Origin: Escherichia coli
Lineage (GTDB): Bacteria > Pseudomonadota > Gammaproteobacteria > Enterobacterales > Enterobacteriaceae
Assembly: GCF_003334815.1 (NCBI RefSeq)
Contig: NZ_QOWO01000041.1
DNA: 33,046 bases
Reading direction: 5' to 3' (one strand)
In this document: piece after piece, positions 16,960 to 22,256 of the stretch
How the letters are laid out: every line of letters starts with the position of its first letter
Numbering within the stretch: position 1 is the first letter of the stretch
Position numbers and translations under genes: made by a program
The notes under the pieces: model-generated
What the model was told of the DNA's origin: nothing
Seen by the model: the letters and a program-made list of their open reading frames with translations, nothing else
The model's database searches: none

Positions 16960-18018
16960 TCAGGCGGTTATCGACACACTTTTAATTTGCGCGTACAGCC
17001 ACAGGCCAGGTTTGATCGCCAGTTCATCCCTGGCCCACGGGCTGATACGCGCCCACAGCGTTTTACCGCCGACTTCCAGTTCCACTTCCACCTGGCCGTT
17101 GTCGTCATAACTATTAACAACTTTTGCCCGCAATACGTTACGAATGCTGGTTTGCTGCGGCGGTTGTAAAACCAGAGAAACATCGGAAGCCTGAATGCGG
17201 ATACGTAGCGCAGCTTGCAGCGGTTCGTCCAGCTTATTGACCCACAAATGCTGATCGCCCAGCGCCAGCGCGGTCATCGCGTAATGCGGATGATGCTCAA
17301 GCACCGTCACTTTCAGAATGCTACTTTGTTGCTCTTTCGGCAGCCACGGATTCATCACGCTACTGCCCCACACTTCCTCCAGCGCGCCAAAGGCTTTCAC
17401 CTGACCGTTTTCCAGTACCATCACTCTGTCTGCCAGATGGAGGATCTCATCCAGCGAATGGCTGACATACAACATCGGAATGTTGATTTCCCGTGTCAGC
17501 CGTTGCAGATAAGGCAACAGTTCGCGTTTACGCGGAATATCCAGTGACGCCAGCGGTTCATCCAGCAACAGCAATTCCGGTGCTGTCAGCAAAGCCCGAC
17601 CAATCGCCACGCGCTGTTTTTCGCCTCCGGACAGGCTGCCTGGTAAACGGTCAAGCAACGGTTCAATGCCTAAAAGCGCCACCAGCTTATCGAACTGATC
17701 GACCATACTTTTCGACATGCCGTAGCGCAGATTGCCACGCACTTTGTAATGCGGGAACAGCCGCGCATCCTGAAAAACATAGCCAACGCGACGCTTTTCC
17801 GGCGTCAGGCAGATACCTTTTTCGGCATCATTTAGTACCCGCCCATTGAGGACAATCCGCCCTTTTTGCGGGCGCGTCAGTCCACTGATGGCGTTAATCA
17901 GCGAAGTTTTTCCGGCACCGGAGACGCCAAAGATAGCAGTGATGCCATTGGCGGGCAGCGTTTCATTAATAGTCAGGCAATGGTTGCCCAACGTCTGGGA
18001 AAAATTCAGTTCCAGCAT
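16960..18018 (-). CDS. modC: Molybdate ABC transporter ATP-binding protein ModC (352 aa)
   Basis: Walker [13 protein letters not shown] signature LSGGEKQRV, Walker B LLLDEP; C-terminal TOBE-type domain. Confidence 0.93.
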
Positions 18019-18020
18019 GA

Positions 18021-18710
18021 TTAGCGCCCCGCCCGTTCACGGCTGATTCTGGCCAGCCATTCTGAAATCAACAGGGAGATCATCGCCAGCGCAATAGAAA
18101 TAATGCACAGTCTCGCCGCTCCACTTTCCCCGCCGGGGGTCTGGATCAGGGTATACATGGCAGAAGGAATGGTTCGCGTTTCACCAGGAATGTTCGACAC
18201 AAAGGTGATGGTTGCACCAAACTCACCGAGAGAACGAGCAAAAGCCAGTACCGTACCAACAATAATTCCCGGTAAGGTCAGCGGTAACGTGATAGTAAAG
18301 AAAACGCGCCAGCGCCCGGCCCCCAGTGTTCTTGCGGCCTGTTCCAGTTTGACATCAACCCCTTCCAGCGCCAGACGAATTGCCCGCACCATCAGCGGAA
18401 ACGACATGACGGCGGCAGCGAGAACCGCGCCGCGCCAGCTAAAGGCGAAGGTAATACCAAACCAGTCATACAGACGTTCACCGATAAATCCGCGCCGTCC
18501 CATCGAAACTAATAATAAGTAACCGACGACCACGGGCGGTAACACCAGCGGTAGATGCAGTACGCTGTCGAGCAGAGCTTTGCCCGGAAACGTGCAACGC
18601 ACCAGTAACCAGGCAAAAAAGATCCCAAACGGCAGGCTAAACAGCACAGCCAGGGAAGAAACTTTCAGGCTTAATAAAACTGCCTGCCATTCTGGATCGG
18701 TCAGTATCAT
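18021..18710 (-). CDS. modB: Molybdate ABC transporter permease ModB (229 aa)
   Basis: Hydrophobic permease; operon position between modA and modC. Confidence 0.93.
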
Positions 18711-19483
18711 TACTTGATTGTAAATCCGTAACGTTTAAAGATTTCCGCTGCCTGCGGTCCCTTCAGATAATCATAAAATGCTTTCACTGTCGCATTGTTA
18801 TGCCCTTCCACAACAGCAACCGGATATTCCACTTTTTTATGTGAATCTTCCGGGAAGGTGGCAACCACTTTTACCCCTTTGCTGGCAACTGCGTCAGAAC
18901 CGTAGACAATGCCCAGAGGCGCTTCGTTACGTTCGACCAGCGCCAGCGCCCCACGAACATCTTCCGCTGGGGCCAGTTTCGGAGAGAGCGTATCCCATGC
19001 GCCCAGTTTTTGCAGTGCTTCTTTTGCATAAATGCCAGCGGGAACATGTTCCGGATCGCCAACCGCCAGGCGACCGCCATTCAGCAGTGAAGTCCAGTTG
19101 GTTTTGCTGTCGATGGTGAAATCTTTCTGCACGCTGGCTTTCGGTGCTACAACGACCAGGCTATTGCCGAGCAGTGTCTGACGCGTAGCTGTATCGATCG
19201 CTTTTTTATCAACCGCATAATCCATCCATTTCTGATCGGCAGAAATAAACAGATCCGCAGGCGCACCCGCTTCAATCTGACGGGCGAGAGTAGATGACGA
19301 AGCGAAAGAAGAAACCACATCCACGCCTTTCTCTTTTTTAAACTGCGTAGCAATGTCCTGCATTGCGTTAGTCAGTGATGCGGCGGCGAACACCGTGATT
19401 TTCCCTTCATCTGCCAGTGCATTGCCAGCAACAGCGAAAGAGAGTGCCGCCCCGGCAAACAAGTTCAACCATTTACGAGCCAT
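18710..19483 (-). CDS. modA: Molybdate-binding periplasmic protein ModA (257 aa)
   Basis: Signal peptide MARKWLNLFAGAALSFAVAGNALA; first gene of modABC. Confidence 0.93.
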   Translation of the reverse strand: MARKWLNLFAGAALSFAVAGNALADEGKITVFAAASLTNAMQDIATQFKKEKGVDVVSSFASSSTLARQIEAGAPADLFISADQKWMDYAVDKKAIDTATRQTLLGNSLVVVAPKASVQKDFTIDSKTNWTSLLNGGRLAVGDPEHVPAGIYAKEALQKLGAWDTLSPKLAPAEDVRGALALVERNEAPLGIVYGSDAVASKGVKVVATFPEDSHKKVEYPVAVVEGHNNATVKAFYDYLKGPQAAEIFKRYGFTIK

Positions 19484-19498
19484 TGGTAACCCCTTAAT

Positions 19499-19529
19499 GT
19501 AACGTTATGTAGGCGACAATATAACGACT
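19499..19529 (-). promoter_or_regulatory. ModE operator overlapping the modA promoter
   Basis: Reverse complement reads CGTTATATTGTCGCCTACATAACGTTACATT, the ModE-protected sequence as I recall it, immediately upstream of the modA RBS. Confidence 0.6.
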
Positions 19530-19649
19530 AACTCGGAATTTTCCCAGCAGTTATTGCTAACCTTTGTGAGGTAGATAAGAAAAAATATCGGCAGGAAAAG
19601 CAGGAAGTTGAGAAAAAGAAAATGCCCGACTAAGCGGGCATTCAGGGAA

Positions 19650-19817
<168 letters not shown>

Positions 19818-19927
19818 TCATGAGACTATTCTAACCGCTAAGCACAGAAAAGCACTCCCCTTTTGTGCGGTCAGCTTTGCGTGGCGTTCGTTTTCCGTCA
19901 CAATAAGACTTTTGCCAGGACATTGTT

Positions 19928-20716
19928 ATGCAGGCCGAAATCCTTCTCACCCTTAAGCTCCAACAAAAATTATTCGCCGACCCGCGCCGCATTTCGCTAC
20001 TAAAACACATTGCGCTTTCCGGTTCCATTAGCCAGGGAGCGAAAGATGCCGGTATTAGCTATAAAAGCGCCTGGGATGCCATTAACGAGATGAATCAGTT
20101 AAGTGAGCATATTCTGGTCGAGCGCGCAACAGGCGGTAAAGGTGGCGGCGGCGCAGTACTGACCCGCTATGGTCAGCGACTGATTCAGCTCTATGACTTA
20201 CTGGCGCAAATCCAGCAAAAAGCCTTTGATGTGTTAAGTGACGATGACGCCCTGCCGCTGAACAGCCTGCTGGCCGCGATCTCACGTTTTTCACTGCAAA
20301 CCAGCGCCCGTAACCAGTGGTTCGGTACCATCACCGCCCGCGATCATGATGACGTTCAACAGCATGTTGATGTCTTACTGGCTGACGGAAAAACACGCCT
20401 GAAAGTCGCAATTACCGCACAAAGCGGCGCGCGTCTGGGGCTGGATGAAGGCAAAGAAGTGTTGATATTGCTAAAAGCGCCGTGGGTAGGTATTACTCAG
20501 GACGAGGCGGTCGCGCAAAACGCTGACAACCAATTACCGGGTATTATTAGTCATATTGAGCGCGGCGCAGAGCAGTGCGAAGTATTAATGGCGCTACCCG
20601 ACGGGCAAACACTGTGCGCCACAGTGCCGGTAAATGAAGCGACTTCTCTTCAGCAAGGACAGAATGTCACGGCCTACTTTAATGCCGACAGCGTGATTAT
20701 CGCCACGCTGTGCTAA
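19928..20716 (+). CDS. modE: ModE molybdate-responsive transcriptional regulator (262 aa)
   Basis: MQAEILLTLKLQQKLFADPRRISLLKHIALSGSISQGAKDAGISYKSAWDAINEMNQL... with C-terminal Mop domains. Confidence 0.93.
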   Translation: MQAEILLTLKLQQKLFADPRRISLLKHIALSGSISQGAKDAGISYKSAWDAINEMNQLSEHILVERATGGKGGGGAVLTRYGQRLIQLYDLLAQIQQKAFDVLSDDDALPLNSLLAAISRFSLQTSARNQWFGTITARDHDDVQQHVDVLLADGKTRLKVAITAQSGARLGLDEGKEVLILLKAPWVGITQDEAVAQNADNQLPGIISHIERGAEQCEVLMALPDGQTLCATVPVNEATSLQQGQNVTAYFNADSVIIATLC

Positions 20717-20783
20717 GCGTGTTGACAATTTGTTATGAAACACGTATCCCTGTCAGTAATCGCTGCACAAAGTGGGATATAAA

Positions 20784-22256
20784 ATGTCATCGTTGCAAAT
20801 TTTGCAAGGCACGTTTCGTCTTAGCGACACAAAAACGCTGCAATTGCCTCAGCTAACGTTAAACGCGGGTGATAGTTGGGCGTTTGTCGGTTCGAATGGA
20901 AGCGGGAAATCGGCCCTGGCCCGCGCGCTGGCGGGGGAACTTCCGCTTTTGAAAGGTGAACGGCAAAGCCAGTTTTCCCACATCACTCGTCTCTCCTTCG
21001 AGCAATTGCAAAAACTCGTCAGCGACGAATGGCAGCGGAATAACACCGATATGCTCGGCCCTGGCGAAGATGACACCGGACGCACTACGGCTGAGATCAT
21101 TCAGGATGAAGTAAAGGATGCACCGCGTTGCATGCAACTGGCGCAGCAGTTCGGTATTACCGCCCTCCTCGACCGACGCTTTAAATACCTTTCCACTGGC
21201 GAGACGCGAAAAACCCTGCTGTGTCAGGCGCTGATGTCGGAGCCTGACTTGTTGATTCTTGATGAGCCGTTCGATGGCCTGGATGTTGCCTCACGTCAGC
21301 AGCTGGCTGAGCGACTCGCCTCGTTACATCAGTCCGGTATTACTCTGGTACTGGTGCTCAATCGCTTCGATGAGATCCCGGAGTTTGTCCAGTTTGCTGG
21401 CGTGCTGGCGGATTGCACGTTAGCGGAAACTGGCGCTAAAGAGGAACTGCTCCAACAAGCACTCGTCGCGCAACTGGCGCATAGTGAACAGCTTGAAGGT
21501 GTGCAACTGCCGGAGCCGGATGAACCTTCAGCACGTCACGCCTTACCCGCCAACGAACCGCGCATTGTGCTGAACAATGGCGTGGTTTCTTATAACGATC
21601 GCCCCATTCTTAATAACCTTAGCTGGCAGGTGAATCCAGGCGAACACTGGCAAATTGTCGGGCCAAATGGTGCAGGAAAATCGACGTTATTAAGCCTGGT
21701 TACTGGCGATCATCCGCAAGGTTACAGCAACGATTTGACGCTTTTCGGACGACGTCGCGGCAGCGGCGAAACCATCTGGGATATCAAAAAGCATATCGGT
21801 TACGTCAGCAGTAGTTTGCATCTGGATTACCGGGTCAGCACTACCGTGCGTAATGTGATTCTTTCTGGCTATTTTGATTCGATTGGCATTTATCAGGCCG
21901 TTTCGGATCGCCAGCAAAAACTGGTGCAGCAGTGGCTGGATATTCTCGGCATTGATAAACGCACGGCTGACGCTCCGTTCCATAGTCTTTCCTGGGGACA
22001 GCAGCGTCTGGCGCTGATTGTCCGCGCACTGGTGAAACATCCGACGTTGCTTATTCTCGATGAACCACTACAGGGGCTTGATCCGCTGAATCGCCAGCTT
22101 ATCCGCCGTTTTGTTGATGTGCTGATTAGCGAAGGTGAAACGCAATTGTTGTTTGTTTCGCACCACGCTGAAGATGCGCCTGCCTGTATTACCCATCGTC
22201 TTGAGTTCGTGCCGGACGGTGGACTCTATCGCTATGTGCTGACAAAAATATATTGA
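20784..22256 (+). CDS. modF: ModF, ABC-type ATPase with two nucleotide-binding domains (490 aa)
   Basis: ORF 20772-22256 trimmed to ATG 20784 (MSSLQILQG...). Two Walker A motifs (GSNGSGKS, GPNGAGKS). Confidence 0.9.
   Translation: MSSLQILQGTFRLSDTKTLQLPQLTLNAGDSWAFVGSNGSGKSALARALAGELPLLKGERQSQFSHITRLSFEQLQKLVSDEWQRNNTDMLGPGEDDTGRTTAEIIQDEVKDAPRCMQLAQQFGITALLDRRFKYLSTGETRKTLLCQALMSEPDLLILDEPFDGLDVASRQQLAERLASLHQSGITLVLVLNRFDEIPEFVQFAGVLADCTLAETGAKEELLQQALVAQLAHSEQLEGVQLPEPDEPSARHALPANEPRIVLNNGVVSYNDRPILNNLSWQVNPGEHWQIVGPNGAGKSTLLSLVTGDHPQGYSNDLTLFGRRRGSGETIWDIKKHIGYVSSSLHLDYRVSTTVRNVILSGYFDSIGIYQAVSDRQQKLVQQWLDILGIDKRTADAPFHSLSWGQQRLALIVRALVKHPTLLILDEPLQGLDPLNRQLIRRFVDVLISEGETQLLFVSHHAEDAPACITHRLEFVPDGGLYRYVLTKIY

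Follow-up and report, generated by a model that had tools for sequence, protein, structure and literature searches.

A K-12-identical sequence upstream of modA in an Escherichia coli strain is very probably the ModE operator of the modABC promoter

The stretch of Escherichia coli DNA analyzed here (33,046 nucleotides of contig NZ_QOWO01000041.1, RefSeq assembly GCF_003334815.1; hereafter, the window) carries modABC, and a preliminary description had placed a ModE operator immediately upstream of the modA ribosome binding site, on the minus strand at 19499 to 19529. This raises the question of whether the sequence at this position is the chromosomal ModE operator of the modABC promoter and of which of its features would matter for regulation. 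Reading 19529 to 19499 on the minus strand directly from the window gives AGTCGTTATATTGTCGCCTACATAACGTTAC, so the sequence is present where it had been placed, in coordinates and in strand. Within it lies an imperfect palindrome, CGTTATATT-N6-TACATAACG, at 19526 to 19503 on the minus strand, whose outer arms CGTTAT and ATAACG were found by a repeat search to be perfectly complementary (19503 to 19508 and 19521 to 19526). The 24-mer CGTTATATTGTCGCCTACATAACG has a single copy in the window, and 0 are expected from shuffles even with 3 mismatches. The 3' edge of the palindrome (19503) is 7 nt from the Shine-Dalgarno sequence (19495 to 19490) and 19 nt from the modA ATG (19483), which bears out the position next to the ribosome binding site; the interval first given exceeds the conserved core by 3 to 4 nt per side. 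The parts of the site are as follows.

19503 to 19526, minus strand: candidate ModE operator core, CGTTATATT-GTCGCC-TACATAACG; an inverted repeat, unique in the window, identical to K-12, with conserved arms.
19518 to 19526, minus strand: left (promoter-proximal) half-site, CGTTATATT; per-column identity 0.84 to 1.00 in a blind MAFFT alignment.
19512 to 19517, minus strand: spacer GTCGCC, without sequence constraint; identity 0.14 to 0.53 across species, polymorphic at 19516 and 19514 in Escherichia.
19503 to 19511, minus strand: right half-site, TACATAACG; identity 0.84 to 1.00 except at 19509 (0.51, C/T), where the C is the Y of TAYAT.
19490 to 19495, minus strand: modA Shine-Dalgarno sequence AAGGGG; the GG at 19493 to 19492 is conserved at 0.93 to 0.98, and the ATG follows 6 nt on.

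The genes around the site are those of a molybdate transport locus with its regulator.

18710 to 19483, minus strand: modA (molybdate-binding protein), 257 aa, first gene of modABC; NF007958, 505 bits versus a cutoff of 253, and K-12 annotation.
18021 to 18710, minus strand: modB, above the curated NCBIfam cutoff.
16960 to 18018, minus strand: modC, above the curated NCBIfam cutoff.
19928 to 20716, plus strand: modE, divergent, intact and K-12-identical; NF007957, 510 bits versus a cutoff of 369, full length (1 to 262).
19650 to 19799, minus strand: acrZ, from K-12 annotation.
19620 to 19643, minus strand: acrZ intrinsic terminator, a 9-bp stem and then a T-run, which insulates the modA promoter from upstream transcription.

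The encoded ModE (262 aa) has both its repressor and its Mop domains, one winged-helix and two Mop (TIGR00637 and TIGR00638). Its gene lies about 400 nt from the operator and has no mismatch to MG1655. A profile search showed that ModF is encoded beside modE, divergent from acrZ-modABC. We also observed a sub-threshold Rfam match to STnc180, an enterobacterial sRNA family, at 19612 to 19780 on the minus strand (17.8 bits versus a gathering score of 50; E = 0.55). It coincides with acrZ and its terminator and probably reflects acrZ mRNA catalogued as an sRNA in Salmonella.

We asked how close this locus is to that of K-12. The preliminary description had called the regulatory architecture K-12-like and had named alignment to the K-12 modA promoter as a check. 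From the acrZ end into modA (window 19660 to 19470), 191 of 191 bases are identical to MG1655, in which the palindrome (window 19526 to 19503) corresponds to 795,046 to 795,069. Over a longer range, window 7226 to 32781 aligns in reverse orientation with MG1655 781.8 to 807.3 kb; of the 25,556 bases, 4 are mismatched, at window positions 7229, 14135, 22293, and 30491. Between 14136 and 22292 there are 0 differences, and this part includes modF-modE-acrZ-modABC and all of the intergenic regions, so that the block is not just K-12-like but literally K-12-identical. The four substitutions fall beside the att core (7229), in ybhD (14135), between modF and galE (22293), and in zitB (30491). Of 5426 complete E. 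coli genomes, 5392 contain the 551 bp surrounding the site. The MG1655 stretch identical to the modA operator region is reportedly the one footprinted in Grunden 1999, Anderson 1997, and McNicholas 1997; the K-12 modABC operator/promoter (ModE site I) is said to have been studied in Rech 1995, Grunden 1996 and 1999, Anderson 1997, and McNicholas 1997. In sequence, gene order, orientation, and ModE, the window agrees with it, and the element itself shows no difference. The NC_000913 annotation has no binding-site feature at the modA operator. The modA operator is already known, and the element described here is an ordinary K-12 one with nothing new about it.

We compared the site with motifs published for ModE. 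The E. coli consensus is ATCGNTATATA-N6-TATATANCGAT (PMC545781), and the 28-mer at 19528 to 19501, with 4 mismatches, is the best match to it in the 33-kb window.

19501 to 19528, minus strand: 28-bp consensus-aligned span; 16 of 20 specified positions agree, with mismatches at 19528, 19518, 19509, and 19502.

When the 400 nt preceding the coding anchor were shuffled 2000 times with dinucleotides preserved, a match with 4 or fewer mismatches arose once. The departures at 19528 and 19502 are in the outer flanks, which show no conservation across species; the C at 19509 occupies the known Y position; and the T at 19518, where the consensus has A, is kept in 86% of species. An exact match to TATAT-N7-TAYAT was found in the window at the modA site alone, and the site shares dyad geometry and spacing with both this motif and the published consensus. 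A full-text literature search with the operator sequence, on either strand, returned no relevant paper. The next-best consensus match in the window, with 6 mismatches (4671 to 4698), lies inside a prophage and was rejected as a second ModE site, being within chance expectation for 33 kb.

Beyond E. coli, a gel-shift-validated ModE motif of Methanosarcina, RTTATGT-N8-RCATAAY (PMC12327845), fits the site with one mismatch (plus strand, GTTATGT-AGGCGACA-ATATAAC). This motif and the Rhodobacter Mo-boxes represent the archaeal and alphaproteobacterial ModE boxes, which differ from the modA site in having other target genes, the alternative nitrogenases. Methanosarcina ModE also differs in that its binding in vitro is molybdate independent (PMC12327845).

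Identity to K-12 says nothing about selection. Therefore, we sampled the modA loci of other species. The sampling was operator-blind: the FAAASLTNA motif of the ModA coding sequence was turned into a degenerate pattern, with which species-representative genomes were scanned. A site with at most 4 mismatches was present within 400 nt upstream at 50 of the 102 usable modA loci, compared with 0 of 102 when each was shuffled once. In the Enterobacteriaceae, the distance from the end of the site to the coding anchor is almost constant, at about 110 nt. We aligned 44 Enterobacterales upstream regions blindly with MAFFT, using the coding motif as the sole anchor; the families were Enterobacteriaceae, Erwiniaceae, Yersiniaceae, Pectobacteriaceae, Hafniaceae, Morganellaceae, and Budviciaceae. 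The fraction of these 44 sharing the window base was 0.84 to 1.00 at 19526 to 19518, fell to 0.14 to 0.53 in the spacer at 19517 to 19512, and returned to 0.84 to 1.00 at 19511 to 19503, with 19509 (C or T) the exception at 0.51. Both flanks of the palindrome are conserved below 0.6, and apart from the half-sites, block-like conservation is confined to the Shine-Dalgarno GG and the ATG. The outer CG at both ends (19526 to 19525 and 19504 to 19503) is conserved at 0.98 to 1.00. Two conserved arms around a free spacer are the signature of recognition by a symmetric dimer.

Within Escherichia, both half-sites are invariant across 7 lineages, including E. albertii and an E. coli of 93% identity. 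The variable positions are 19516 (T/A) and 19514 in the spacer, 19527 to 19533 in the 5' flank, and 19499 (C/T/G/A), and at all of these the window has the K-12 allele. We observed that the substitutions cluster beside the half-sites and in the spacer (19527 to 19533, 19516, 19514, 19499, and 19496) with none inside the half-sites, and that all four bases occur at 19499 among the 7 lineages.

The left half-site also contains a promoter-like element. TATATT is the commonest hexamer at this position, found at 34 of the 51 loci with a site. The number of matches to TTGACA peaks at spacings of 16 nt (mean over the 51 loci, 2.92) and 17 nt (2.10) upstream of it; the typical background is about 1.0 to 1.6, with two offsets, 24 and 25 nt, reaching 2.2 to 2.3. 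Agreement with TTGACA at 5 or more of the 6 bases was seen at 9 loci for the 16-nt offset and 2 for the 17-nt offset, with 0 or 1 at nearly every other offset. Thus, the left half-site appears to double as the -10 element of the modA promoter, which would be organized as follows.

19541 to 19546, minus strand: weak -35 candidate TGGGAA; 3 of 6 to TTGACA, 17-nt spacer.
19518 to 19523, minus strand: predicted -10 hexamer TATATT of the modA promoter, within the left half-site; TATATT at 34 of 51 loci.
19509 to 19510, minus strand: probable modA transcription start, inside the operator, 8 to 9 nt past the last base of the -10.

TGGGAA aligns with the ATGACA or GTGACA of Yersiniaceae, Pectobacteriaceae, and Erwiniaceae. 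A generic sigma-70 promoter scan of 19400 to 20000 found no promoter, which we attribute at modA to the weakness of the -35 (3 of 6) and not to the absence of a promoter. A start 7 to 9 nt after the -10 would fall at 19511 to 19509, between the half-sites and at the edge of the right one. Rech et al. (1995) are said to have mapped the modA start to a CATAA motif some 26 nt ahead of the ATG. ModE protection from -15 to +18 was reportedly found by Grunden et al. (1999), in three blocks, GTTATATT (-15 to -8), GCCTACAT (-4 to +4), and GTTACAT (+8 to +14). All three fit the sequence consistently if +1 is A19510, and on that assumption the footprint would extend from 19525 to 19493; the interval of the preliminary description would then end about 6 nt before the downstream DNase limit (19493).

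The third of these blocks, GTTACAT (19503 to 19497), lacks conservation between species, and its position 19499 varies within E. coli. Therefore, it may not be a sequence-specific contact. This suggestion, which comes from comparing sequences, perhaps goes beyond the textbook account. The same could be said of position 19518. No base of a -10 hexamer matters more than its final T, and this may be why a T conserved at 0.86 is found at 19518 in place of the palindromic A: the overlapping -10 may impose a conserved asymmetry on the operator. What matters mechanistically is not the adjacency of the site to the ribosome binding site but its predicted overlap with the -10 and the transcription start.

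We considered whether the conserved block could be a sigma-70 promoter alone, consisting of the -10 TATATT and the start region, with the dyad incidental and no repressor involved. The behavior of the left-arm TATATT as a -10 with -35-like hexamers at 16 to 17 nt is what such a promoter would show, as is the T kept at 19518 against the palindromic consensus. However, the right arm, TACATAACG, is downstream of the -10 and yet is conserved like the left arm and mirrors it, whereas promoters have no sequence constraint downstream of the -10, and the 6 nt between the arms vary freely. Moreover, no promoter element explains the conservation of the outer CG dinucleotides, and a bare promoter would not account for the fit to an independently published ModE consensus with modE adjacent. 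We consider this explanation very improbable.

We regard it as just as improbable that a different regulator binds the site or that ModE activates modABC rather than repressing it. As a dual regulator, ModE does activate moa, dmsA, napF, and hyc (PMC3149613; PMC2408646), and one report words modABCD as "upregulated" (PMC2408646). However, the motif is that of the ModE consensus and is found together with modA across families, covering the -10 and the start is the geometry of a repressor, and repression of the mod operon is stated in PMC3149613, PMC11672702, and PMC9171197. The activator sites at moaA, dmsA, napF, and hyc, loci that lie beyond the window, have the same regulator and the same type of palindrome (PMC2408646; PMC3149613), but they are located upstream of their promoters, where they activate; the modA site differs in covering the -10 and the start, consistent with repression.

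The least probable alternative, with hardly any chance of being correct, is that the palindrome functions as a hairpin of RNA or DNA (an attenuator, a terminator, or a riboswitch element) in the leader or in an acrZ read-through transcript: its arms are formally complementary over 6 bp and a review loosely puts Moco RNA motifs downstream of ModE-regulated promoters, including that of modABCD (PMC11672702), but the RNA fold is only -2.7 kcal/mol (z = 0.37; 121 of 200 shuffles fold at least equally well), the predicted start between the arms would leave the modA mRNA with the right arm alone in a leader of about 27 nt, there is no compensatory change (the C/T at 19509 is unmatched at its partner 19520, which is A at 0.93), and acrZ has its own strong terminator upstream. 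A Moco riboswitch (RF01055) or other known RNA was rejected, since no Rfam family came near threshold in 19300 to 20000; over the same interval, Rfam covariance models gave no match at E ≤ 1 except the sub-threshold STnc180 match over acrZ. As a side observation, the wording of PMC2408646 (that modABCD is upregulated) and of PMC11672702 (on Moco RNA motifs downstream of the modABCD promoter) is loose, and neither fits this locus, with its repressor geometry, its leader of about 27 nt, and its lack of an Rfam match.

We read the element as the chromosomal operator for ModE at the modABC promoter of E. coli, a reading to which we assign a probability of about 0.95, taking the binding itself from the literature. 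It has the features of an E. coli-type ModE operator: an inverted repeat that fits the consensus and TATAT-N7-TAYAT, a position in the promoter region of a molybdenum operon, a full-length cognate ModE encoded in the genome, arms conserved around a free spacer in orthologous promoters, and identity to the K-12 modA operator, if, as reported, the MG1655 stretch is the footprinted one. The operator call of the preliminary description is thereby upheld by K-12 identity, by fit to the consensus, and by dimer-site conservation in 43 further species and in 6 further lineages of Escherichia. The sequence, its K-12 identity, the statistics, the conservation, and the gene content are observed here; the -10 overlap and the start are predicted from them. 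ModE binding, its dependence on molybdate, and repression would carry over from the literature, which concerns K-12.

That literature describes ModE as a repressor of modABC (PMC3149613), and repression of the mod operon is stated also in PMC9171197. Molybdate is an allosteric activator of DNA binding by the ModE homodimer: once it occupies the Mop domains, the DNA-binding domains are reoriented (PMC11672702). The molybdate-dependent repression that the preliminary description had proposed agrees with these reports (PMC3149613; PMC11672702) and with the gene content, ModA, ModB, and ModC being encoded downstream and an intact ModE nearby, all above NCBIfam cutoffs. In such a circuit, ample cytoplasmic molybdate would be bound by the Mop domains of the ModE homodimer, and the two winged-helix domains would be reoriented so that each DNA-binding domain could contact one half-site of CGTTATATT-N6-TACATAACG (19526 to 19503). 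The left half-site would hold the -10 TATATT and the right one would span the transcription start. By covering both, ModE would exclude RNA polymerase and halt production of the high-affinity molybdate transporter. Once molybdate runs short, ModE would come off and modABC would be transcribed. Promoter occlusion by molybdate-bound ModE is thus the likely means of negative feedback on molybdate uptake.

Outside the mod locus, the host differs from MG1655 by 4 SNPs over 25.5 kb, by a lambdoid prophage 12 kb away at attB, and by 156 bp in the tRNA-Lys region; its backbone is K-12-like, and the strain is not MG1655. Window 1 to 7244 is the end of the prophage, which occupies the lambda attachment site beside ybhC; the att core, TTAGTATAAAAAAGC, is found at about 7229 to 7243. 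The part from 3161 to 7248 carries int, xis, Ea22, and exo and is 98% identical to lambda, and the part from 78 to 3160 carries a porin, the Q antiterminator, RusA, and YlcG and is 98% identical to phage ev243. The exo side joins the nin/Q side directly, and the recombination-immunity-replication block expected between them is missing. This suggests that the prophage is mosaic or deleted and possibly defective. The int-attL-ybhC junction was present in 1854 of 5426 complete E. coli genomes; therefore, occupancy of this att site is common. BL21(DE3) lost modABC, modE, and modF next to the lambda DE3 insertion at the same att site (PMC3149613). In contrast to BL21(DE3)-type strains, which have lost the whole mod block, the window has 16960 to 22256 intact and K-12-identical despite the neighboring prophage. 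At the other end, at 32728 to 32781, the window lacks 156 bp relative to MG1655, between two 54-nt direct repeats downstream of tRNA-Lys (lysQ); tRNA-Lys genes are found at 32764 to 32839 and 32972 to 33046, the second truncated where the window stops. The missing segment appears to reflect repeat-mediated copy-number variation in the lys/val tRNA array.

The natural variation beside the invariant half-sites could tune ModE affinity or promoter strength between lineages, although we consider this doubtful. If it did, the third block GTTACAT would be an E. coli-specific, nonessential contact.

For annotation, the window represents a strain with a complete and unaltered K-12 molybdate homeostasis circuit, consisting of ModE, its probable operator, the promoter, and ModABC. 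The cross-species footprint would be an independent confirmation of the footprinting result of the 1990s and opens no new question. The site also illustrates a dual constraint, in which an overlapping -10 would hold one base of the operator off perfect symmetry.
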